A stretch of DNA of 64,000 nt from an uncultured Alphaproteobacteria bacterium (GTDB lineage Bacteria; Pseudomonadota; Alphaproteobacteria; CAAHEQ01; UBA3637), in the NCBI GenBank assembly GCA_944391565.1, contig CALXUB010000019.1:6919-70918 (forward strand), in the 5' to 3' direction. Every line of letters begins with the position of its first letter. The stretch's first letter is position 1. The position numbers were made by a program, and so were the translations under genes. A model generated the notes under the pieces. The model had not been told where the DNA came from and made no database searches. It saw nothing but the letters and a program-made list of their open reading frames with translations. Below are positions 45,551 through 63,234 of the stretch, in pieces.

Positions 45551-46099
45551 ATGGACTTCGGTAAAAAAGGAGCAACTCCTTCAAAACAAAGAATTTGTGA
45601 CCATCCGAACTGCGATAAGGAAGGGCTGTATCGTGCACCCAAAGACCGCACGCTTCGCGAGCATTACTGGTTTTGCCTGGAGCATGTCCAACAATACAAC
45701 AAGAACTGGAATTATTACGAAGGGTTGGGACCCGAACAGATTGAAGAAGAAATCCGGCGCGATATCGTAGGACATCGGCCGACTTGGAAAGTCAACGATC
45801 TATATGCCAACAGATTGAAAGACCCGTTTGATATTTTAGGATTGGGGCGTCGCCGTCCGCGTCCGACGTCTTTTAGCGAACAGCAAAAAGAACGGCCTTC
45901 GTTGGTGACCATCGAACATTTGGAAGCAATTAAAACTTTGAAATTAACGCCGCCCATTACATTGGACAGTGTCAAAAAAAATTATAAAACACTCGCCAAG
46001 AAATATCATCCGGACAAAAACAATGGCGATAAAAAAGCGGAAGAAACCTTTAAGTCCATTACCTGTGCCTATCGGCTGCTGTTAAAAGCTTTGAAATAA
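45551..46099 (+). CDS. J-domain protein with N-terminal Cys/His zinc-finger-like region
   Basis: 182 aa with a C-terminal J domain (YKTLAKKYHPDKNNGD with the HPD motif). N-terminal CDHPNC…HYWFCLEH. Confidence 0.65.
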   Translation: MDFGKKGATPSKQRICDHPNCDKEGLYRAPKDRTLREHYWFCLEHVQQYNKNWNYYEGLGPEQIEEEIRRDIVGHRPTWKVNDLYANRLKDPFDILGLGRRRPRPTSFSEQQKERPSLVTIEHLEAIKTLKLTPPITLDSVKKNYKTLAKKYHPDKNNGDKKAEETFKSITCAYRLLLKALK

Positions 46100-47473: not shown

Positions 47474-48214
47474 ATGAGCCGAGATTACGAATTGATACAA
47501 GCTGTTAAAGAAAACGACACGGCAGGAGCATTAACCTTAATGAGCCATTCATTCGATCCGATGATACGGGACAACGAAAAAGATGAAACGCTGATGATTA
47601 TGGCTGCCCGCCACTTGAATTTGACACTGATGTACAAACTTTACGATGCCGCCAAAGCAAAAGGCGTTGAAGAACTGCTTATCAAATCTCGGACCTTAAC
47701 CGGTATGACGCCGCTGATGATCGCGGCCCGCGGTAAAACGTCTTCCTTCGAACAAGCCGAAGAAGAAATGAAAGGCACTGTTCATGCTGATAAAACAATT
47801 GAAGACGGTATCTTCAGCGACGCTTACATTCAAAATGTCGTTCATGTTATGAATATTCATATGGAAAATCTTCGCGCCAGCGCAGCCTGCGCACACTTTT
47901 TACTGCAAGCCGGTGCCGATATTTCTGCACAAGACATCAATGGCGACACCCCTCTGCATCATGCTGCCCGCGCCGGAAATGTTTATCGGGATCAAAACGG
48001 TATCCTCCAAGGCGCATTGCCGGTCTTACTGTCCCATCCGACTGTTGATTTTTTCAAAACCAACAAAGAAGGCGAAACACCCTTCTACACAGCTCTGCAT
48101 GAACGGAATTGCTTGGCACTGCACGTCATCGGCAAAGCCATGAAACAGGCTCGGCAAAACATCGTGCAACAAGCATATACCCTTTTAAAAAATGCTGAAC
48201 GAACACGCGAATAA
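47474..48214 (+). CDS. ankyrin-repeat protein (246 aa)
   Basis: At least three ANK-like repeats (…GMTPLMIAARGK…, …GDTPLHHAARAGN…, …GETPFYTALHERN…). Confidence 0.7.
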   Translation: MSRDYELIQAVKENDTAGALTLMSHSFDPMIRDNEKDETLMIMAARHLNLTLMYKLYDAAKAKGVEELLIKSRTLTGMTPLMIAARGKTSSFEQAEEEMKGTVHADKTIEDGIFSDAYIQNVVHVMNIHMENLRASAACAHFLLQAGADISAQDINGDTPLHHAARAGNVYRDQNGILQGALPVLLSHPTVDFFKTNKEGETPFYTALHERNCLALHVIGKAMKQARQNIVQQAYTLLKNAERTRE

Positions 48215-48265
48215 ACATCGATTAAAAGATTAACATTCTGAAAAACAAAAGACATCTTTAAAAGC

Positions 48266-48291
48266 CGACCCTCTTGGAAACAAGGGGGTCG
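48266..48291 (+). terminator. hairpin downstream of ankyrin gene (cgaccctcttg-gaaa-caagggggtcg)
   Basis: An 11-bp stem with one mismatch, but no clear T-run. Confidence 0.3.
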
Positions 48292-48403
48292 CTGACAAAA
48301 AACAAGCGCGAAGATAAAAAGGGCCTTTTTGCCGCCCCTAAACCCAATTCAAAAAGGCCCTTTTTCGCTATGAATTTGACTATTATTAAATAGAGCAGCA
48401 AAC

Positions 48404-48615
48404 AGGCCGCCCGTGGAAATCTTCGCGCGGCGCGGACAGCTTATCAATCAAAAGCGCGCTTCCTGGTTCTCAGGGGGGCCCAGGGGCGGGCTGATTGTCT
48501 AAAAAAACTTTTTTACTGATTTATTTTAAAACAAGCGCACTTGTTTAAATAAAGGAACGCTTAAATATGAAGGAAGGCCGCCCGCGCGCCGCGAAGAATT
48601 CGCGGGCGGCCTTTC
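48404..48615. repeat. pair of related ~35-nt GC-rich elements in inverted orientation (48404-48435 and 48576-48611); the second forms a perfect 11-bp hairpin + T-run
   Basis: aggccgcccgtggaaatcttcgcgcggcgcgg versus ggccgcccgcgcgccgcgaagaattcgcgggcggcc-tttc. These are GC islands in an AT-rich intergenic region. Confidence 0.4.
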
Positions 48616-48730
48616 ATTCAAAAACAACACACACACTTCAATACAAATTCCTTTTTCAATAAAATAATCATAGACAAAAAAACTACAAATCTGCTATCAT
48701 ACTCTCAGAACACATGAAAGGAGCTTAACC

Positions 48731-49491
48731 ATGTTCACTTTAACCAAAATTACCCCCCCCACCCCCCTGTTCTCCTCGTTAACCTAACTATCTGCTTCTG
48801 TTTTTCTCTTCCTGCTCACGCTAAAATCATTCAAAGAAAAATGCACATGGTCTGTCAAGAACATGAGTCTGCTTATTGGGACGGATCTAAAGGTGTCTGC
48901 TGTGACGGAAGCGTCTATCAACCAGACATTGAAGACACTTCTTATGCCTGTTGCCCAACTGGAAAAGAAGTCTCTACCGTTATGGGAAAAGAAAACCTCA
49001 ACTAGTGTTGCTCAGAAGGACAAAAGGCTTATTGGAACGGATCTTCTGCCCAGTGCTGTGCGACCGCAACGCATCAAATCGTCACTAACTACATCAACGG
49101 CGTCGAAGATGCAGGATATGCCTGCTGCGAAGTTAAAGAAGATTATTCAAAAACATACTATGATGGAGATATTACCGAGACTGATTATTACTCCGGATAT
49201 TCCATTGCGGGGGCTGTTAACGGCAAATGCTGCGGCGGATATGCCAGTATTACTTATGCTGATTATGGTCAATCAACAAACAGTCATGCTGTCCGCCAAA
49301 ACGGCGGTGTTTACTATTGTGCTTCAAACTACAATAGAGTAGACTTATATACAGGAGATGAAACGCGGACATATGTCAGCAATAGCCAAGTTTGTTATGG
49401 TATCGGCCATGGGTACGAATATTGCTACTGCACAACGACAGGAGACCCAGACAAAGGAAACATATGCTGTTTTTATCCTGACTGTCCTTAG
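48731..49491 (+). pseudogene. phase-variable / disrupted secreted cysteine-rich protein gene (ATG 48731 out of frame by +1 with downstream frame; in-frame TAG at 49003-49005)
   Basis: The ATG-led frame MFTLTKITPPTPLFSSLT* stops at 48785-48787. The frame open from 48730 encodes …VLLVNLTICFCFSLPAHA (signal-peptide-like), then Cys-rich CQEHESAYWDGSKGVCCDG…, a TAG, then CCSEGQKAYWNGSSAQCC… through to the stop at 49489-49491. A +1 C insertion would fuse the ATG to this frame. Confidence 0.5.
48753..48767 (+). repeat. homopolymeric C tracts (C8-A-C6) inside the 5' end of a coding frame – candidate slipped-strand phase-variation site
   Basis: Counted directly: tacccccccc acccccc. Lies between an ATG (48731) and an out-of-frame signal-peptide/Cys-rich reading frame. 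Confidence 0.6.
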
Positions 49492-49501
49492 TCTTTCAGC
49501 T

Positions 49502-51175
49502 TTAACGCGTTAACGGTTTGTATTTAATGCGATGCGGGCCGGCGGCTTCGACGCCCAAGCGCCGTTTTTTGTCGGCTTCATATTCCTCGTAATTACCTTC
49601 GAACCAAACGACCCGGCTATCGCCTTCAAAAGCCAAAATATGTGTCGCCAACCGATCCAAAAACCATCTGTCGTGAGACGTAATCACGGCACAGCCGGCA
49701 AAATCCAGCAAGGCTTCTTCAAGCGCACGCAAAGTATCTACGTCTAAATCATTGGTCGGTTCGTCCAACAAAATCACATTTGCTCCTTGTTTGAGCATTT
49801 TTGCCAAATGCACGCGATTGCGCTCACCGCCGGACAGCTGCCCGACCTTTTTTTGTTGATCGCCGCCTTTAAAGTTAAACTGCGCCACATATGACCGAGA
49901 CGGCACCTCGCGTTTGCCCAGCGTTAAGAGGTCTTTGCCGTCTGAAATCTCCTGCCACACGGTTTTGTTCGGATCCAGCTCATCACGTGTCTGATCGACA
50001 TAGCCCAGATGAACGGTTTCTCCGACGCGAAATGTGCCGGCATCAGGTTTTTCCTGTCCGGTAATGATTTTCATCAAAGTTGTTTTGCCGGCGCCGTTCG
50101 GACCGATGACACCGACAATACCGCCGGGCGGCAAGCTGAAAGTCAGATTTTCAAACAACAATTTATCGCCGAAACCTTTTTTCAAATCCTTTGCTTCCAA
50201 CACCAGATCCCCCAACCGCTCAGCCGTCGGAATGATAATCCGTGCTGTCGCGGGTGCTTTATCCGAAGCTTTTTTCACCAACTCCTCAAAAGCCGCAATT
50301 CGTGCTTTGGATTTTGCCTGACGTGCCTTGGGAGACTGCCGTATCCATTCCAGTTCCTCTTTCATCGTACGCTGACGCGCAGTTTCCTCGCGCTCTTCCT
50401 GAGCCAATCGTTTTTCCTTTTGTTCCAACCAGGAAGAATAATTCCCCTCGTAAGGAATGCCCTCTCCGCGATCCAGTTCCAAAATCCAGCCTGTCACGTT
50501 ATCCAAAAAATACCGGTCATGTGTCACCATCACGATTGTTCCCGGATAGTCTTTTAAGTGTGTCTGAAGCCATTCCACCGATTCGGCATCCAAATGATTG
50601 GTCGGTTCGTCCAAAAGCAGCAAGTCGGGTTTACTGAGCAGCAAACGACACAACGCGACGCGACGACGTTCACCTCCCGACAGCTTGGTCACATCCGCCT
50701 CCCCGGGCGGACAACGCAAAGCATCCATGGCAATATCAATCATGCGTTCCAGCTCCCACCCGTTGCAGGCGTCGATTTTTTCCTGAAGCTCAGCCTGTTC
50801 AGCCAACAGAGCATCCATATCGGCATCCGGATCGGCAAACTTCATGTTGACGTCTTCAAACTTTTTCAACAAGTCACGGATTTCACCCACACCGTCCATG
50901 ATGTTTTCCATAACATTTTTGGCGGGATCCAGCTGTGGTTCCTGTTCCAAATATCCGATACGAACCCCCTCGGCCGCCCATGCTTCCCCTCTGAAGTCCG
51001 TATCCAAGCCGGCCATGATTTTCAACAAAGTCGATTTACCGGCGCCGTTCGGTCCCAAAACACCGATTTTCGCTCCCGGATAAAAAGACAACCAAATATG
51101 CTTTAACACTTCTTTGCCGCCCGGCCAGGTTTTGCATAAATCTTTCATTACATAAATATATTGATACGCCGCCAT
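49502..51175 (-). CDS. ettA: ABC-F family ATPase EttA-like (energy-dependent translational throttle)
   Basis: Track ORF 49502..51235. Probable start [13 protein letters not shown], giving ~557 aa. Two ABC cassettes with Walker A motifs (GPNGAGKST and GPNGAGKTT). The C-terminus is typical of EttA. Confidence 0.8.
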
Positions 51176-53341: not shown

Positions 53342-53929
53342 TTAAAACTGATTTTGAATATATCGATGCAACGTCACCCAACGACAGTTCATCAAACGGG
53401 CAATTTCGGCTTTGGAAACGTTTTGAGCCAGGAGTTTTTTTATTCTTTCGTGATTTTCCAAAAGATGTTGGTAGGAAAAACCAAACGGGCGCCCCAGATG
53501 TTTTCCTTCTTCTTTTAACCGCTGCAACGAGTTTTTGGTTCGTTGAGAAATAAGCTGCCGTTCGATTTCTCCGGCCAGACAAAACGCAAAAGCCAAGACT
53601 TTGGATTGGATGTCTCCGCCCAAGCGATAATGCTCTTTTAAAGTCCAAATCCGGCAGTCTTTTTCCAAACACTGCTGTAAAATACTCATGACCTCCAACA
53701 AATTGCGTCCCAAACGAGAAAGCTCGGTTGCAATCAGAACATCTCCTTTTTTCAGCTGTTTAAGCAGTTTGCCCAGTTTTCGGTTGTTTAATGTTTTTCG
53801 GGAAGAAATAATTTCTTCGATCCATTTATCGATTTTCATATTTTCTTTTTTGGCAAAAGCTAAAATTTCATGTTTTTAATTTTCAACATGCTGATGGTCG
53901 GTGCTGACCCGAATATATGCGTAATACAT
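53342..53929 (-). pseudogene. serine recombinase (DNA invertase/resolvase family) gene disrupted by in-frame TAA
   Basis: ATG at 53927-53929 encodes MYYAYIRVSTDHQHVEN and then a TAA stop (53876-53878). Translation resumes in-frame with ...KIDKWIEE… (track ORF 53342..53839). It aligns codon-for-codon with the intact paralog at 62451..63050, where a Q occupies the stop position. Confidence 0.7.
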
Positions 53930-54012
53930 TGTTTTTCCCTTATAAATAAGTTGCTCACATTGATAAGAACTAACAATAAGGATTAAAGATTGTCTTAAAA
54001 AACACTGTCTTT

Positions 54013-54141
54013 ATAAACCAGCGTTTATTGATATATGCATTTATATGTAAGATATGAAATATTATTTAAATTTTTATTAATAAAATAGTATTTTTACAAC
54101 TTTTTTGTTTTTTTTTATTTTATTCATAAACGCTGGTTTAT
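54013..54141. promoter_or_regulatory. candidate invertible promoter switch: perfect 16-bp inverted repeats (54013-54028 ataaaccagcgtttat; 54126-54141 ataaacgctggtttat) flanking a 97-bp AT-rich segment
   Basis: Inverted repeats read directly from the sequence. Each repeat is itself a near-palindrome (ataaac-NNNN-gtttat). The segment carries TTGTAA-N17-TAAAAA on the minus strand. It lies between the recombinase pseudogene and the ATG of the giant surface protein at 54172. Confidence 0.5.
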
Positions 54142-54171
54142 GCACAGGGCCCATAACAGTGATGAGACAAA

Positions 54172-57100
54172 ATGATTAAAAAAATACTTTTCAGTTTAGT
54201 GACCTTTGGATTGATTTTCAGCAATTCAAATGTTTCCGCACAAGTAAGACCGATGAACATTGCGCAAGCGAATCCCCGAACAATGATATATCATTATGCA
54301 CAAACCGGGAATCTTCAAAATCTGCTTTTATTAAAAAGACAAGGCTATGCCATCGACCTTGTTGATGAAAAAGGCAACAGTGCGTTATGTGAAGCCACCT
54401 GGCGACAGAACCAAACAGCCGTCGATACACTCATTCAAGCCGGCGCGGATACAAACAGCACCTGCATGCAAGAAATCCCGCAATCATATAAAGACGCCGT
54501 CAACATTACTTATATGGACGAACCCATCAACACACTTCGCAAACCCTCTAAGGCCGGCACAATTTGCTCGATCAGCAACAACGGTACACGAACTTGCACG
54601 CCTGTTTTGCAAGACGGCACTGTTGTTGCCGGAACCGACAAAGCCTCTGATCGTGCAGCAGCTGCCTATGTCATCGATCACAGCATCGGAACAACAGCTG
54701 CCGGAACCAATGAAGGCCTCAGCACCGGCGTTAAAATCGGTATCGGCATCGGTGCAATCGCCCTGATCGGCGGCGGTATCGCATTAGCCGTCGGTGGTGG
54801 TGGCGGCGGCGGCGGAAAAGGGAACGGTTCAACACCTACCGACCCCACTCATCCTGATAATCCGGACAACCCGGACAATCCCGGCCCCGATAATCCGGAT
54901 AACCCGGACAACCCCGATAACCCGGATAACCCCGATCCTGATAATCCGGATAACCCCGATCCTGATAATCCGGACAAGCCCGACCCTGACAATCCGGACA
55001 AGCCTGATCCTGACAATCCGGATAACCCCGACCCTGACAATCCGGACAAGCCTGATCCTGACAATCCGGATAACCCCGATCCTGATAATCCGGACAAGCC
55101 TGATCCTGATAATCCGGATGAACCAACCAAAATATGCAACGCCGGTGAATTCCTGACTGAAGCGGAAACATGCGAAAAGTGCGGACTGGGATATTACGCC
55201 AAACACGGATCGAACATCTGTACACCGTGCGCAGTCGGCAGCTATGCCAACCAATTAGGTTCCATTGTTTGCACGGCTTGTCCCATCGGTCGAAGCACTT
55301 CCGGGATTGCTTCCACTTCTTGCGACGTTTGCGCGACCGGCTACAAACAACAAGGAGAGTCGTGTCTGCCGTCATGCCGAGCCGGAGAATACTGGGACGG
55401 CAGCATGTGCGCGGCTTGTCCGCAAGGCACCTTCTCTATCGCCGGTGCAACAACTTGCTCGAAATGTCCCGATGGATATACAACGGCAGAAGAAGGCAGT
55501 TCTTACTGCGATGCCTGTCAAGAAGGGTATGTCTGGCTGGACGGATTTTGTGAGCAACAATATGAATTAGATCCCCAAGCTGTTTGTCAGCCCGGGTATC
55601 GACCGAACGATAACGGCGGATGTTCTCCCTGTCCGATTGATTCCTATGGCAGCGACGGCACCAATTGCTATCGTTGCCAAACCGGCTATACGACAAACAA
55701 AACAGGTTCCACCAGTTGCGATATTTGCGAGGAAGGATACTATTCCGACAATGGTGTTTGCCGGCCCCATTGTCAAGCCGGATATTATTGGGATGGCAGC
55801 AACTGTCAAATATGCGCGCCCGGTTCTTACTCCTCTAAAGGCAGTTTAAGTTGTACCGCGTGTTCCAGAAACACTTACCAACCATCAGCCGGTCAATCAA
55901 CATGTATTTCTTGTCCCGTCGGTTCATTGACCGAATCTGCCGGTGCGACAGCCATTGAACAATGCAACACTTGCTATGGCGGTTATATTTTAAAAGATGG
56001 TTCTTGTCAAACCTGTCCGGCCGGATCTTATGCGGACAGCTCATCCAACACCTGTGTTCAATGCCCGATCGGACAATACAGTCCATCTGAGGGACGAAGC
56101 GCTTGTTCTACATGTCCGGAAGGACAGACAACAACCGCCCTCGGATCGACAAGTTGCAGCTGTGACACAGCCAACGGTTATATTGCCGTCGGTGATGAAT
56201 GCCGCCTGAAACAATATTCCTGCGAAGCCGGCAATTATTGGGACGAGACAGAAGGCAGCTGTCAAACTTGTGAAGCTGGAACGTTTTCGGCTTCCGGTGC
56301 GAACTACTGTACCGCCTGCCCATATGGTTATTTCAATGCTTCAGCCGGTGCCGCCGTCTGCCAGGCATGTCCTCAAGGATGGACAACGTCATCCAACGGC
56401 ATGACAAAATGTGATATTTGTGCCGATGGGTGGACCATGGAAAACGGACAATGCGTCACAACCTGCCCGGCCGGACAAGTTTACAACGGTTCGGCGTGTG
56501 AAGCCTGTCCCATCGGCAGCTTTGCACTCAAAGGGGCTTCTTCATGTACCCTCTGTCCGCAAGGCTGGACAACATCCGCGGCCGGCGCCCTCACCTGTGA
56601 CCTCTGTGCGGACGGTTATCAACTGAATTCATCCACCGGCAATTGTGTTCATCAGGATGAAGGCGTTTGTGACGCCGGATGGGCTTGGAACGGGACTGAA
56701 TGTCAACCCTGCCCGGCCGGTGAATATTCCGAAGGAGAAAACTCCCTGTGCCACAAGTGTGCCATCGGGTATTATTCTACACAGGAAGGCAGCACCAGCT
56801 GCACCCGCTGTCCGGTTGGATCTACGACACAGGAAGAAGGTTCTACCAGTGCCTTGCAATGCAACATCTGCGGCATCGGATATTCTTGGTCCGCAAGTGA
56901 AGGAAAATGCGTCACGGAATGTAAGAACGGTATGTTTTGGAACGGATCGACCTGTGAACTTTGCCCGGCCGGAACCTATACCAGAGGCTTAGAAAATAAT
57001 GGCGCTATTCCAACTTCGTGCCAACCTTGTTCCGCCGGCACTTATTCTGCAATAGAAGGCGCCACATGGTGTTCATATTGCCCAAGTCACTCAACCTCTG

Positions 57101-60100
57101 TTGAGGGAGCAACCGACATATCCTTTTGCACTTGCGAAGACGGCTATTATAACACAGATAAAGTAACCGTTAATTGTGTGCCGCATTGTCAAGCCGGTCA
57201 AAGATGGACCGGAACCGAGTGTGTTGACTGTGCGGCAGGGACTTATTCATCCTCCAGCGGGGCAACTGAATGCTACCGATGCTTTTACGGTTCGATTTCC
57301 GAAGCCGGCGCAACCAGCTGTACATCTTGTCCCGAAGGTTTTTCGACTTCTGCCTTAGGATCAGACACTTGCGATATTTGCGCTGCGGGATATGAGGGAG
57401 ACGGCACAACTTGTACAATCTGTTCTGCCGGCACCTATTCGAATGCTTTGACGAATCGCACATGTATGCCTTGCGCGATCGGAACGTATATCAGTACTGA
57501 CGGCGGATCTTCCTGCACGGCTTGTCCGACCGGTTATACAACCGAAACAACAGGCTCCTCCGACGTCGAAGCTTGTCGTATCTGTTCGGAAGGCTACATC
57601 ATGAAAAACGGTAAATGCGTCGCCAACAACAAATCATGTGCCGCCGGTGAATATTGGGCAGGTGATTCCTGTGCTTCCTGCGCTGCGGGAACGTATTCCG
57701 TGGAAGGTTCCATTGCCTGCTTACAGTGCCCGAAAGGTACATATACTTTGGAAAGCGGAAGTCAAAGCTGCACATCCTGTCCCGAAGGATTTACGACCAT
57801 GGGTTTCGGATCCACAACGGCAGACGCTTGCTCAATCTGCGCGGAAGGATATAAGTCCGACGGCGCGGGCGGATGCGTCTTGGCACGGGAAACATGTCCC
57901 AGCGGAGAATACTACAACGGCTTTCAGTGTGTCTCGCTTCCTGAAAACGCCCAAACCGATGCAGATGACATCCGAGGATGGACCTGTGTCAGCGGTTATA
58001 CCCGCGTAGGGGATAACTGTATCTTGACGACAGATTTAAACATTACGACCAATCCGCAAGACACAACATTAACATCAACCATGACGGCAACCCTTTCGAA
58101 TGCCGGATCGGTGCTGGCTGTCAATGACGGCACGATTGAGATTTCCGAAACTGAAGGCAGCTCCAACAGTCTGGTCGGCATGAAAACAACGGGGTTTGGA
58201 TGGGGAAGTTATGAGGCCTATATCGTCAACAACGGCACCATTCAAATGACATCAGAGCAGGCTTCATTGACCGGTATTGACGCCGCTAGCCATTTTGCCG
58301 ATAACAACGGCACCATCCGGTTATCGTCCAACTCGGGCAGTTTAAATGGTATAGTAGCCAAAAAAGGATATAATTACGGCCAAATTGAGTTGACCGGCAG
58401 CAAATCTATTAACGGGATGAGCAGCAACTCTTATAACTCTGAGTTAAAAAATTACGGCTCTATTTTGTTAAACGGAACAAACAGCAATTATCTTTGTGGT
58501 ATCTCTTATAACGATACGAGCGATGTAATGGAGAACTACGGAACCATCCAAATCAATTCTTTTGAAGGAAGTAGTATGAGCGGTATGTCCGGAGACTTAT
58601 CCGTCAACTATGGCACCATTCGTATTCAAGATTACCAAAACATTTCCACGTCTTCAAGCTACCTGACAACAGGAATGAACGGCGGGAAAAACTATGGAAA
58701 TCTGTTCATAGATGTGCAAAACAGTGAAAAAGAGTATATTGTCAGCGGCATTCATTCCGGACAAAACTACGGAATGATTGACATCTATGCTCGAAATCTG
58801 GAGAAAAACACCCAATTATCCGGAGCGAATGCTTCAACTAATTTCGGAACCATTTCGATTGTCGCGGATCATGTTAAAAGCATCACCGGCATACTAAACG
58901 GCAACAATTATGGAACGATTCGGATGAACACTTCCGACACATCGACGGTCACCGGATTGAATATACAAAACAACGGAATGATAGAAATAATTGCATCCGG
59001 CGCGACAAATGTCTACGGTGTCTATAGTCCCTCTTTTTATGATACTCATAATAACGGCATGATCAAGGTGACATCCATTGGAAAAGAGACAAACACCACT
59101 GCCGGTTTGTACAACACAAAAAACTACGGTGACGTTTATGTCAGCGGATCCGGACAATATTTGTATGGTTCCAAGGGAATATCTGCTTCCAATTACGGAA
59201 ACATCACACTGACCGGCTCTGCCGATTATGTTTACGGAATGGATGGCTATTATAACAGCGGCACGATCCGTATCGATGCCTCCAAAACATCTTATGTTGT
59301 CGGCATGAAGCCAAGCACTATTTCCACGAATGAAGGAAAAATCAGCATCATCAACAGAGGAAATAACGCTGTTTACGGCATCTTGAATTATATTTCGACA
59401 ACAAATGCCGCCGGAGCGGAAATCAATATCGAAAACACCGGAAATGGAACGGCTCACGGCATTTCGGGCGGCTATTCCGTCTATAACGACGGAACAATCC
59501 GAATTACCAATACCGGCAACGGAACAGTCTATGGTATCGACAATGCGACTTCAGTGACGAACAGAGGTCTGATTGAAATTACCAATACCGGCACGGGGCA
59601 AGCCTATGGCATTTATCTGAATGGAGCCGACAAATTCGTTTCCAATGAAGGAACTATCTCCATCAACGGCACTTCCTACACAGGCAACGCACCGTCCGGC
59701 AATTTCATTGTTCTGGAAAACAACGCCAGCTTGGCAACCAGCGGAACATTATCAAGCTCGGGTGCACTGGATTTGAACGCTTTTTCACCGGACGGAACAG
59801 GGCGCATTGCATTGATGCCCAACGGCCGTGTAGAGGGCGAATCTATCTCGGGAGATTTACACATCGACGCATCCAACGTGACGAACGGATTTAAAACCGC
59901 TTACACACTGTCGGATGCCGTCAAGGCCAAAGAAACAAGCAATTTAAACTTAATTTCCGACTCGGCTTTATTTAATGCCGATTTGGCCGACAACGGCGAA
60001 GATGTCATTATGCAAATGAAATCTTTTGACCAAGTGACTGCCAACAAAAGCCTGGCTGATTTTTTGACGGCAAATTATGCGGCTGCCAACAACGAAACAC

Positions 60101-61029
60101 TCTTTAACGAGTTAAAATCAATTGAAACGCAGAAAGCTTTAAGCTCCGCCGTTAAATCCATAACGGGCGCCGAAATCATGACACGGTTCGCCAACGAAGA
60201 TTTAACCGCTATTCGTGATGTCAACCAAACCATGAACAGCCTGATGTTTGCCAATAACGACAAACCGATGTTCGAAGCAACCGGCGCTTTAGACACCTTC
60301 AGCTTTAAAAACAACGATCAATCCTCGGCGCAATATGCGTTAGCCAACAAACGGATCACGCCGCGCCTTAAAATCGGCTATGCCATGAGCAACACGAACA
60401 TGAGCACGGACGATGATCACGACACCACACGGCGAAACAATATCTTCCAAGTTTTCACGCCCGTCAACTATGACCGCTTTGGCTGGCAGTTCATCTCAAC
60501 GCCGCAAATCGGATATGCTCGCGCGCATTATACGCGTCAAGGATGGAACTCCATGTCCTATGACGGTATTTTGGAAAAAAGAATCTTTGCTTTGATGAAC
60601 GAAGCGCGCTACCCCATCGATTTAGGAAAATGGGACGTGTCGCCGACAGTCGAATTGAATGCAATCATCTATAACCAAAGAGGACATGAAGATAAAAAAG
60701 CATTTGCCCTCAGAATACCGTCAGATAACAGTGTCTCCCTGGAAGCCGGTTTGGGTTTCTATCTGCAGCGAAAGTTAGGTGATTTGAATGTTTCCATGGG
60801 GCTGATGCTTTATCGAGAATTTGCCGACCCCTACACCATGAAGGCCGGCATGCAAGAGATGAACGGAACATTTGACTTGTATGATGAAAAATATTCTCCT
60901 TACCGTGGAACAGCCTCTTTCCTTTTCGGCTACGACCTCGGCAGCTTTAATCTGTATGGTTCCCTGAAACACTTTATTGAAAATGACACGCATACCCATT
61001 TGAAAGCAGGTGTGAAATATGCCTTCTGA
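54172..61029 (+). CDS. giant autotransporter-like surface protein with tandem ephrin-receptor-like (GCC2/GCC3-type) cysteine-rich repeats
   Basis: 2285 aa. The layout runs: signal peptide (MIKKILFSLVTFGLIFSNSNVSAQV); an ankyrin-like repeat (GNSALCEATWRQNQTAVDTLIQAGADTN); a Gly-rich hydrophobic stretch; a (PDNPD)n linker; ~900 aa of repeats C-x2-C-x2-G-x-Y-(S/T)-x4-6-C-x2-C; a passenger-like region with NYG repeats; and a ~290-aa C-terminal beta-barrel-like domain ending …LKAGVKYAF. Confidence 0.75.
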   Translation: MIKKILFSLVTFGLIFSNSNVSAQVRPMNIAQANPRTMIYHYAQTGNLQNLLLLKRQGYAIDLVDEKGNSALCEATWRQNQTAVDTLIQAGADTNSTCMQEIPQSYKDAVNITYMDEPINTLRKPSKAGTICSISNNGTRTCTPVLQDGTVVAGTDKASDRAAAAYVIDHSIGTTAAGTNEGLSTGVKIGIGIGAIALIGGGIALAVGGGGGGGGKGNGSTPTDPTHPDNPDNPDNPGPDNPDNPDNPDNPDNPDPDNPDNPDPDNPDKPDPDNPDKPDPDNPDNPDPDNPDKPDPDNPDNPDPDNPDKPDPDNPDEPTKICNAGEFLTEAETCEKCGLGYYAKHGSNICTPCAVGSYANQLGSIVCTACPIGRSTSGIASTSCDVCATGYKQQGESCLPSCRAGEYWDGSMCAACPQGTFSIAGATTCSKCPDGYTTAEEGSSYCDACQEGYVWLDGFCEQQYELDPQAVCQPGYRPNDNGGCSPCPIDSYGSDGTNCYRCQTGYTTNKTGSTSCDICEEGYYSDNGVCRPHCQAGYYWDGSNCQICAPGSYSSKGSLSCTACSRNTYQPSAGQSTCISCPVGSLTESAGATAIEQCNTCYGGYILKDGSCQTCPAGSYADSSSNTCVQCPIGQYSPSEGRSACSTCPEGQTTTALGSTSCSCDTANGYIAVGDECRLKQYSCEAGNYWDETEGSCQTCEAGTFSASGANYCTACPYGYFNASAGAAVCQACPQGWTTSSNGMTKCDICADGWTMENGQCVTTCPAGQVYNGSACEACPIGSFALKGASSCTLCPQGWTTSAAGALTCDLCADGYQLNSSTGNCVHQDEGVCDAGWAWNGTECQPCPAGEYSEGENSLCHKCAIGYYSTQEGSTSCTRCPVGSTTQEEGSTSALQCNICGIGYSWSASEGKCVTECKNGMFWNGSTCELCPAGTYTRGLENNGAIPTSCQPCSAGTYSAIEGATWCSYCPSHSTSVEGATDISFCTCEDGYYNTDKVTVNCVPHCQAGQRWTGTECVDCAAGTYSSSSGATECYRCFYGSISEAGATSCTSCPEGFSTSALGSDTCDICAAGYEGDGTTCTICSAGTYSNALTNRTCMPCAIGTYISTDGGSSCTACPTGYTTETTGSSDVEACRICSEGYIMKNGKCVANNKSCAAGEYWAGDSCASCAAGTYSVEGSIACLQCPKGTYTLESGSQSCTSCPEGFTTMGFGSTTADACSICAEGYKSDGAGGCVLARETCPSGEYYNGFQCVSLPENAQTDADDIRGWTCVSGYTRVGDNCILTTDLNITTNPQDTTLTSTMTATLSNAGSVLAVNDGTIEISETEGSSNSLVGMKTTGFGWGSYEAYIVNNGTIQMTSEQASLTGIDAASHFADNNGTIRLSSNSGSLNGIVAKKGYNYGQIELTGSKSINGMSSNSYNSELKNYGSILLNGTNSNYLCGISYNDTSDVMENYGTIQINSFEGSSMSGMSGDLSVNYGTIRIQDYQNISTSSSYLTTGMNGGKNYGNLFIDVQNSEKEYIVSGIHSGQNYGMIDIYARNLEKNTQLSGANASTNFGTISIVADHVKSITGILNGNNYGTIRMNTSDTSTVTGLNIQNNGMIEIIASGATNVYGVYSPSFYDTHNNGMIKVTSIGKETNTTAGLYNTKNYGDVYVSGSGQYLYGSKGISASNYGNITLTGSADYVYGMDGYYNSGTIRIDASKTSYVVGMKPSTISTNEGKISIINRGNNAVYGILNYISTTNAAGAEINIENTGNGTAHGISGGYSVYNDGTIRITNTGNGTVYGIDNATSVTNRGLIEITNTGTGQAYGIYLNGADKFVSNEGTISINGTSYTGNAPSGNFIVLENNASLATSGTLSSSGALDLNAFSPDGTGRIALMPNGRVEGESISGDLHIDASNVTNGFKTAYTLSDAVKAKETSNLNLISDSALFNADLADNGEDVIMQMKSFDQVTANKSLADFLTANYAAANNETLFNELKSIETQKALSSAVKSITGAEIMTRFANEDLTAIRDVNQTMNSLMFANNDKPMFEATGALDTFSFKNNDQSSAQYALANKRITPRLKIGYAMSNTNMSTDDDHDTTRRNNIFQVFTPVNYDRFGWQFISTPQIGYARAHYTRQGWNSMSYDGILEKRIFALMNEARYPIDLGKWDVSPTVELNAIIYNQRGHEDKKAFALRIPSDNSVSLEAGLGFYLQRKLGDLNVSMGLMLYREFADPYTMKAGMQEMNGTFDLYDEKYSPYRGTASFLFGYDLGSFNLYGSLKHFIENDTHTHLKAGVKYAF
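54837..55125 (+). repeat. tandem ~15-nt DNA repeat (cc(t/c)ga(t/c)aatccggacaa(g/c)) encoding (PDNPD/PDKPD)n linker inside the autotransporter gene
   Basis: About 19 consecutive near-identical units are visible. All three frames remain open across the tract, which produces the overlapping repeat ORFs listed in the track. Confidence 0.8.
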
Positions 61030-62450: not shown

Positions 62451-63050
62451 TTAATGTGGAAAAATGTTTTCAGACCTGATGTACCTATGAAGCGTAATCC
62501 AAGAACAGTCCATCAGTCTGGCTATTTCAGCTTTTGATACATTTTTATTTAATAGTTCTTTGATTTTTTTATCTTTCTTTTTTAATTTTTGATATGAAAA
62601 GCCATAAGGACGTCCTAAGTGTTTGCCTTCATCTTTTAAGCGTTTTAATGAATTTTTTGTTCTTTCGGAAATAAGCTGTCGTTCAATTTCGCTGGCAATT
62701 GAAAAAACAACGGCCAGCAATTTACTTTGAATATCAGCACCTAAGTGATAATTTTCTTTCAAAGTCCAGACTTGACAGCCTTTTTCAAGACAATTTTGTA
62801 AAATACTCATAACTTCCAATAAGTTGCGTCCCAGTCTGGATAATTCGGTTGCAATCAGAATATCGCCTTTTTTAAGACGCTTTAATAATTTGCCTAACTT
62901 CCGTTCATTTAAATGCTTTCGAGAGGATATTTGTTCTTCAACCCATTTATTGATCTGGATATTGTTTTCATTTGCAAAAGTTAAAAGTTCATGCTGTTGG
63001 TTGGCTGTATTTTGTTTGTCTGTACTGACCCTGATATATGCGTAAATCAT
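62451..63050 (-). CDS. serine recombinase, DNA invertase/resolvase family (Hin/Gin/Pin-like), intact
   Basis: Track ORF 62451..63083. The likely start is MIYAYIRVSTDKQ (catalytic-serine motif YIRVSTxxQ). A C-terminal HTH (SKAEIARLMDCSWITLHRYI). About 200 aa, typical of small serine invertases. Confidence 0.8.
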   Translation of the reverse strand: MIYAYIRVSTDKQNTANQQHELLTFANENNIQINKWVEEQISSRKHLNERKLGKLLKRLKKGDILIATELSRLGRNLLEVMSILQNCLEKGCQVWTLKENYHLGADIQSKLLAVVFSIASEIERQLISERTKNSLKRLKDEGKHLGRPYGFSYQKLKKKDKKIKELLNKNVSKAEIARLMDCSWITLHRYIRSENIFPH

Positions 63051-63234
63051 CGTAAAATCCTTATAAAAGTTGTTAAACACCATTATAAGAACTACTAAAA
63101 ATTGTTAAAAAATCACTGCTAAAAATAGACGCTATACATATATCACCGTCTATTTGATACATTGAAACAACACAAAAAATGGTTTCCCTAATTTTACTCT
63201 TTCGGTCATTATATTTAATTAAATTAAGGAATGC

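Follow-up and report, generated by a model that had tools for sequence, protein, structure and literature searches.

In the 64,000-nt stretch of DNA that we analyzed (hereafter, the window), a self-contained expression cassette of 1.3 kb separates an ankyrin gene from an ABC-F gene. Judged by its ABC-F gene, the window belongs to uncultured Alphaproteobacteria, mostly of animal guts, that are represented by metagenome-assembled genomes. From upstream to downstream, the following features can be recognized in and next to the cassette:

48316..48615, no strand: clustered REP-like hairpins, rich in GC, 5' of the cassette (fold energies -31.8 kcal/mol, z -3.9, and -24 kcal/mol, z -3.8)
48671..48700, plus strand: sigma-70-like promoter, TAGACA, 18-nt spacer, TG-TATCAT (10 of 12 consensus positions)
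48717..48723, plus strand: Shine-Dalgarno sequence AAAGGAG, invariant in alignment A1
48731..48787, plus strand: start codon and 18-codon product of the OFF frame, MFTLTKITPPTPLFSSLT by translation, ending at TAA 48785-48787
48753..48767, plus strand: poly-C tract C8-A-C6, 2 nt longer than the in-frame 13-nt tracts of the homologous loci L088 and L090
48769..48822, plus strand: remainder of a Sec-type signal peptide, VLLVNLTICFCFSLPAHA by translation in the downstream frame, with predicted cleavage after AHA and before KIIQRK
48823..49002, plus strand: mature N-terminus and di-Cys module 1, C.E..AYW.GS...CC...YACC (column conservation 0.83-0.96 in two-module homologues)
49003..49005, plus strand: in-frame TAG, a C-to-T nonsense mutation of CAG (Gln), which is CAG in L081 and L090
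49006..49143, plus strand: di-Cys module 2, conserved, the final portion of the gene for which paralogues show DNA similarity (blastn similarity to L082-L089 stops at 49093-49153)
49144..49491, plus strand: C-terminal half with framework islands and hypervariable stretches (block conservation, alignment A2), stop codon TAG 49489-49491

The promoter is the only promoter-like match in the 1.5 kb that were scanned and is kept in 7 of 7 aligned loci. Reading the sequence directly, AAAGGAG precedes the ATG (48731-48733) with a 7-nt spacer, and the first six codons (ATG TTC AYT TTA ACC AAA; MFTLTK, then Ile, in the window) are kept in all loci. The strongest hairpin has a 15-bp stem (48572-48615) followed by TTTCATTC; together they probably insulate the gene from upstream transcription or terminate it. 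The same hairpin elements lie 5' of homologous loci and elsewhere in the contigs of the relatives. The hairpins at 48404-48445 and 48572-48615 have the form GGCCGCCCGCG-loop-CGCGGGCGGCC, and in columns 205-245 of alignment A1 their inner ~20 nt flips by locus (L083 and L089 versus L082, L084 and L087), as if the inner segment had been turned around via recombination between the stem arms. A search of Rfam over 48150-49600 returned no credible RNA family, and no further copy of the gene family or of its 5' cassette was found within the 64 kb.

The initial annotation had described an ATG at 48731 followed by C8-A-C6 at 48753-48767, a downstream frame with a signal-peptide-like segment and two tandem cysteine-rich modules, and an in-frame TAG at 49003-49005, exactly at the junction of the two modules. 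The coordinates were all correct, and translation confirmed the content of the frame, with both modules fitting the pattern given above, as well as the position of the TAG. The 15-nt tract consists of C8 (48753-48760), A (48761) and C6 (48762-48767). From the ATG, translation proceeds for 18 codons to the TAA; the long frame comprises 241 codons, from 48769 to the TAG at 49489-49491, with the in-frame TAG in between. This frame had been placed at +1 relative to the ATG, and here we correct the annotation: the offset is +2 (equivalent to -1), over 38 nt. The predicted consequence, that gain of one C fuses the ATG to the long frame, holds despite the different offset, because the distance between the ATG and the anchor is 92 nt and either one additional C (93 nt) or the loss of two (90 nt) joins the frames. 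None of the 161 sense codons 3' of the internal TAG is a start codon (ATG, GTG or TTG), and this part of the open frame therefore makes sense only as the continuation of the upstream protein. The poly-C tract is more than a chance occurrence: its C8 is the sole run of at least seven C or G in the 64 kb, C runs of at least six are depleted (6 observed and 13 expected), and its position is kept across homologous loci. C and G runs overall are scarcer than expected in the window.

We searched for relatives of the protein encoded by the repaired frame and found 45 homologues, none of which is named or carries a Pfam domain. Sequence searches of Pfam, NCBIfam and PDB with the repaired protein and its relatives gave no match, while a profile search against 1.84 billion representative proteins returned 80 clusters at E <= 0.001. 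JGI metagenomes, scanned for a 32-nt pattern of the cassette as well as for protein patterns, yielded no relatives. In-frame members begin with MF(T/I)LTK(I/L)(T/P)PPPP, followed by a hydrophobic core, VLL.NLTICLCFSLPAQA or ALNNLFNYLILFSIITLPAQA, and then by KIIQRKMHMVCQEHE; the leader of the in-frame homologues reads MFTLTK(I/L)TPPPPVLL.NLTICLCFSLPA(Q/H)A up to the predicted cleavage point, after which the protein continues with KIIQRK. The poly-C tract thus codes for the Pro-Pro-Pro-Pro run of the leader. In distant members the signal peptide is of the ordinary type, lacks the Pro run and ends at the corresponding position in A followed by K. The predicted cleavage site gains support from this, which also shows that the poly-C tract is a lineage-specific addition.

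The mature protein has roughly 222 amino acids and is rich in cysteine. Its first roughly 100 residues are highly conserved (0.8-0.96), and in the C-terminal half the islands GAVNGxCCGG, QNGGVYYCA and CxC..GDP (0.6-0.8) alternate with hypervariable stretches (0.15-0.45). The number of cysteines is even in most members examined (12-22, or 6.5-12% of residues), and one sequence counted with its leader has 19. The protein was modelled with high confidence as an all-beta, disulfide-rich fold (pLDDT 90), for which a structural search returned no match; as modelled, the fold is a candidate new domain family. No lipobox, recognisable anchor or secretion signal other than the Sec leader was found. We rejected a lipoprotein reading on the leader sequences, as the A-type leader has no Cys and the LTIC of the V-type leader is a poor lipobox. 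Export, disulfide bonding and any surface location are putative.

Larger relatives (P0080-P0136) of 430-4676 amino acids carry the di-Cys module 3-29 times. One of them, P0085, matches the galaxin-like repeat PF24748 with 26.8 bits (E 5.5e-6), where the Pfam threshold is 28 bits. Like the family, galaxin-like repeats are tandem modules built around CC pairs. When PF24748 was compared with 32 family members, only 1 of 32 reached even E 0.08; the window protein had no match at E <= 0.1 and did not reach the gathering threshold. A galaxin-like di-cysteine repeat identity of the module is hence hinted at, as a lead rather than as membership.

To read the state of the tract in the relatives, we recovered the DNA of nine homologous loci, which gave ten loci together with the window. 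The counts of ON (in frame) and OFF (out of frame) alleles rest on these ten DNA loci and not on the lengths of gene calls; all comparison sequences are metagenome assemblies, in which long C runs are error-prone. Five loci were in frame and five out of frame:

Window: C8-A-C6, OFF
L083: C14, OFF
L087: C14, OFF
L085: C13, with A-type leader, OFF
L084: CC-T-C6, OFF
L088: C13, ON
L082: C7-T-C6, ON
L086: C7-T-C6, ON
L089: C7-T-C5, ON
L090: C7-T-C5 (A-C7-T-C5 when the preceding A is included), ON

From the ATG to the anchor, ON alleles measure 90 or 99 nt and OFF alleles 91, 92, 94 or 100 nt. Full-length tracts interrupted by T (C7-T-C5 and C7-T-C6) are all in frame, and three of the four uninterrupted ones are out of frame, which would fit a stabilization of the ON state by tract interruptions, in a small number of loci. 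We had also considered assigning ON and OFF states from the lengths of called proteins, since long and short calls occur together in 90% clusters. We downgraded this evidence because the L090 allele is in frame and yet called short: its protein, P0046, was called from an internal Met. A short gene call can hide an in-frame leader, and the classification was therefore made from DNA only.

The most compelling evidence is provided by three pairs of alleles from the same locus in conspecific strains of different samples; each pair differs by a single gap, always within the tract:

L088 and L087: 99.1% identity over 3277 nt, 1 gap (C13 and C14)
L086 and L085: 98.8% identity over 3362 nt, 1 gap (inside the tract)
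Window and L090: 98.4% identity over 2449 nt, 1 gap of 2 nt (inside the tract)

The chance that the sole gap falls in the tract in 3 of 3 pairs is about 1e-7. Tract length therefore differs between near-identical alleles and moves the signal peptide and the mature protein in and out of the frame of the ATG. In the four OFF alleles other than the window, the mature frame stays open over 211-243 codons; the three same-locus pairs have pN/pS values of 0.16, 0.23 and 0.07. OFF copies are kept under purifying selection, as expected if they were regularly ON. In addition, an ON and an OFF paralogue (L082 and L087) lie together on one 208-kb contig (ERZ14206906 NODE_41).

Loci that occupy unrelated neighbourhoods (rpsT and NUDIX; transglutaminase and MFS; LolA and FtsK; EAL genes; PTS-EIIA; ABC-F) barely differ in their promoter, ribosome-binding site, ATG and first six codons. 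The family has the hallmarks of contingency loci: a homopolymer in the 5' coding region that is long enough to slip (C8-A-C6 in the window, C13-C14 in relatives), a repeat number that toggles between the full-length ORF and termination after 18 codons, and length polymorphism between close strains with collinear flanks (3 of 3 pairs). OFF alleles are otherwise intact in 4 of 4 relatives; the window allele is the exception, owing to the TAG at 49003. The slipped-strand ON/OFF design proposed in the initial annotation is in this way supported by comparative DNA.

The window allele itself is OFF and carries a nonsense codon. Its locus was recovered from conspecific strains as L081 and L090, with synteny that is continuous through ABC-F and that in L081 extends further, to a 186-aa ORF, a 452-aa ORF, a resolvase gene and a giant ORF. 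L090, from another sample, encodes an intact precursor of 253 amino acids. Compared to it, the window allele has two disabling lesions, a tract that is 2 nt longer and a change from CAG to TAG at 49003-49005. The initial annotation had treated the TAG as independent of the tract and had proposed checking whether homologues in related strains lack it. They do: the codon is CAG (Gln) in both L081 and L090, and codes for His or Tyr (CAC, TAC) in the other homologues. By this comparison the TAG is a private C-to-T nonsense mutation, which probably arose while the copy was in the OFF phase. Slippage alone would restore only the leader and module 1, because of the TAG. The tract is also less mutable than the C13-C14 of the relatives, since it is interrupted as C8-A-C6, and its longest perfect run, C8, is near the lower limit for efficient slippage. 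Most likely, the window allele is a dead or dying copy. Among the readings offered at the outset, namely that the locus is OFF, pseudogenised or read through, pseudogenisation fits best, and read-through found no support.

At 48977-48987, the window shows clustered substitutions (7 compared to L081 and 6 compared to L090; ACC GTT ATG GGA versus ATT GTC/GTT CAA GGT). The encoded STVM, in place of SIVQ, is shared with P0048 and partly with P0003 and P0013, and the patch looks in sequence like a short gene-conversion tract.

Exchange between paralogues is suggested also on a larger scale. Bodies that are more than 90% identical can follow a leader of either type and differ in their N-domain microvariants. 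Comparing the window with L090, we counted 34 substitutions in 953 nt of the cassette (pS 0.10) and about 3 in 1496 nt of ABC-F, an excess that points to recombination with paralogues. In L001, the closest different species (96% identity of the ABC-F protein), the 1.3-kb cassette is missing and the ankyrin and ABC-F genes are direct neighbours; none of 80 genome loci anchored on ABC-F has a copy of the family. The contigs of L081, L086 and L088 start or end inside the conserved cassette or just 5' of it. These breaks are likely caused by the repetition of roughly 500 nt of the cassette among paralogues, and as a consequence copies of the family and their tracts will be under-sampled in short-read assemblies.

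The surroundings of the cassette hold further candidates for variation. A serine recombinase gene (PF00239; 53342-53839, minus strand, region 53342-54191) adjoins an ORF of 2285 amino acids (region 54172-61029) with 8 ephrin-receptor-like repeats, TNFR-like Cys-rich repeats and one ankyrin repeat. Just 5' of the ATG of this giant ORF lie 21-nt inverted repeats (54013-54033 and 54121-54141), which are 90% complementary and 87 nt apart. The segment between the recombinase and the giant ORF looks like a candidate invertible promoter switch; its orientation in L081 is the same as in the window. A second full-length resolvase/invertase gene (62451-63083, minus strand, PF00239 E 2e-34) is found a few kb 3' of the giant ORF. 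Genes for eukaryote-like repeat proteins with ankyrin, Sel1/TPR, LRR and DnaJ domains are frequent nearby (47474-48214 and 45551-46099 in the window; L082, L083 and L089), which suggests a host- or protist-associated lifestyle.

We evaluated whether the frame differences could have other origins. Sequencing or assembly artefacts would imply that the frameshifts are homopolymer miscalls in genes whose frame is in fact always intact. Every sequencing platform does struggle with homopolymers of 13-14 C, and assemblies often break in the cassette (L081, L086 and L088 start within it or just before). We consider this explanation quite unlikely, as 5 of 10 independent assemblies, from different assemblers and samples, are out of frame and in both directions (+1, +2 and others). 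Moreover, alleles also differ by T or A substitutions within the tract, which length miscalls cannot make, and the TAG is a substitution rather than a homopolymer error. Plain decay is unlikely too. If the family were eroding, the tract indels would be ordinary inactivating changes at a mutational hotspot and no adaptive, reversible switching would take place; the 211-243 codons of the four other OFF alleles would hardly be free of a second lesion, nor would pN/pS (0.07-0.23) indicate purifying selection on the mature protein. Diverged subfamilies retain the tract as the code for Pro-Pro-Pro-Pro, which synonymous CCN codons could specify without a C run, and promoter, ribosome-binding site and ATG are nearly invariant. 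What decay does account for are the two independent lesions of the window copy, the absence of the cassette from the closest different species, and the small size and patchy distribution of the family.

In the case of recoding, stuttering of the RNA polymerase or slippage of tRNA-Pro on the C run would put part of the products back in frame and make OFF alleles leaky instead of switched, and the TAG would be read through or reassigned. It is known that tRNA-Pro can slip by +1 in CCC-C contexts, and C14 alleles need exactly +1. The window requires -1 or +2 instead, and the presence of in-frame alleles at the same loci confirms that the length of the DNA does vary. We rejected TAG as a sense codon or read-through site because homologues have Gln, His or Tyr at this position, because TAG is an ordinary stop that ends 8 of the 33 large ORFs in the window as well as the cysteine-rich gene itself, and because no tRNA gene, suppressor or other, lies within the 64 kb. 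Conserved use of TAG as sense codon, with the corresponding tRNA and machinery, was thus not found in the window, and recoding is very unlikely overall.

The reading that we favor, and that we hold to be likely, is that of a slipped-strand contingency family of dispersed paralogues, of which the window allele is an inactivated copy. Judging from consensus assemblies, tract length would change reversibly by slipped-strand mispairing at replication. Each paralogue would switch at random between ON, with an exported protein, and OFF, with an 18-aa peptide, and recombination among paralogues would join the conserved 5' part to changing, hypervariable 3' bodies. The product is likely a variable exported or surface-exposed protein with a binding or antigenic role, as suggested by the signal peptide, the even number of cysteines in most members, the pattern of framework and hypervariable segments, and phase variation.

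Several known systems can be compared with this family. In the nanH3 sialidase gene of Gardnerella, a poly-C tract, 8-14 C long, forms part of the 5' coding region beside the sequence for the signal peptide; its length decides between full-length and truncated protein, and out-of-frame alleles are annotated as leaderless (bioRxiv 10.1101/2020.09.16.300947). This tract is the closest documented counterpart, and the family shows the same annotation artefact of leaderless gene calls. Unlike the family, nanH3 is a single gene for a known enzyme of a Gram-positive bacterium, with the tract after the signal peptide. The tract analyzed here falls within the leader, where it separates the n-region from the hydrophobic core, and it belongs to a dispersed multigene family with an unannotated Cys-rich product.

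In Neisseria, Opa genes have CTCTT repeats in the region coding for the signal peptide, and pilC has poly-G in the leader. Opa genes are generally known as dispersed paralogues, each with its own leader repeat and independently ON or OFF, with a conserved framework, hypervariable segments and recombination between paralogues; in all of this the family is similar to them. The 8-stranded transmembrane beta-barrel and the C-terminal aromatic beta-signal of the Opa type were not found. Mycoplasma Vlp/Vsp genes combine a conserved 5' promoter and leader with divergent mature regions and switch ON and OFF through homopolymers, and the family paralogues likewise share a 5' promoter and leader joined to divergent mature parts. 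In contrast to the family, the Vlp homopolymer is a poly-A in the promoter with transcriptional control, and Vlp products are tandem-repeat lipoproteins; the poly-C tract acts on translation, no lipobox is present, and variability would fall in the loops of the modelled disulfide-rich beta fold. The family resembles opa, pilC and vlp in overall logic without belonging to those protein families. While the mechanism is a known one, the gene family, its apparent fold and the host lineage are new.

A broader interpretation, which we put forward tentatively and regard as possible rather than probable, is antigenic variation of the Opa or Vlp type on a fold with no known relative. The shared 5' cassette would act both as ON/OFF switch and as recombination handle that swaps disulfide-braced beta-sheet bodies, and the products would be exported toward a host or protist partner. 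The ankyrin, Sel1 and LRR context fits such a partner, as does the neighbouring 2285-aa ephrin-receptor-like, Cys-rich protein with its candidate invertase switch.

Most of what has been established about phase variation comes from cultured pathogens. In the present case, the signature of homopolymer contingency in a never-cultured gut lineage was read from metagenome assemblies that are public. About half of the database entries of the family lack the leader, owing either to an out-of-frame copy or to the choice of start codon (as in P0046), and this hides their secreted nature; furthermore, assemblies tend to break within the shared cassette. A contingency family of this kind implies that the surface of these bacteria is under fluctuating selection, exerted by immunity, by phage or by a eukaryotic partner.
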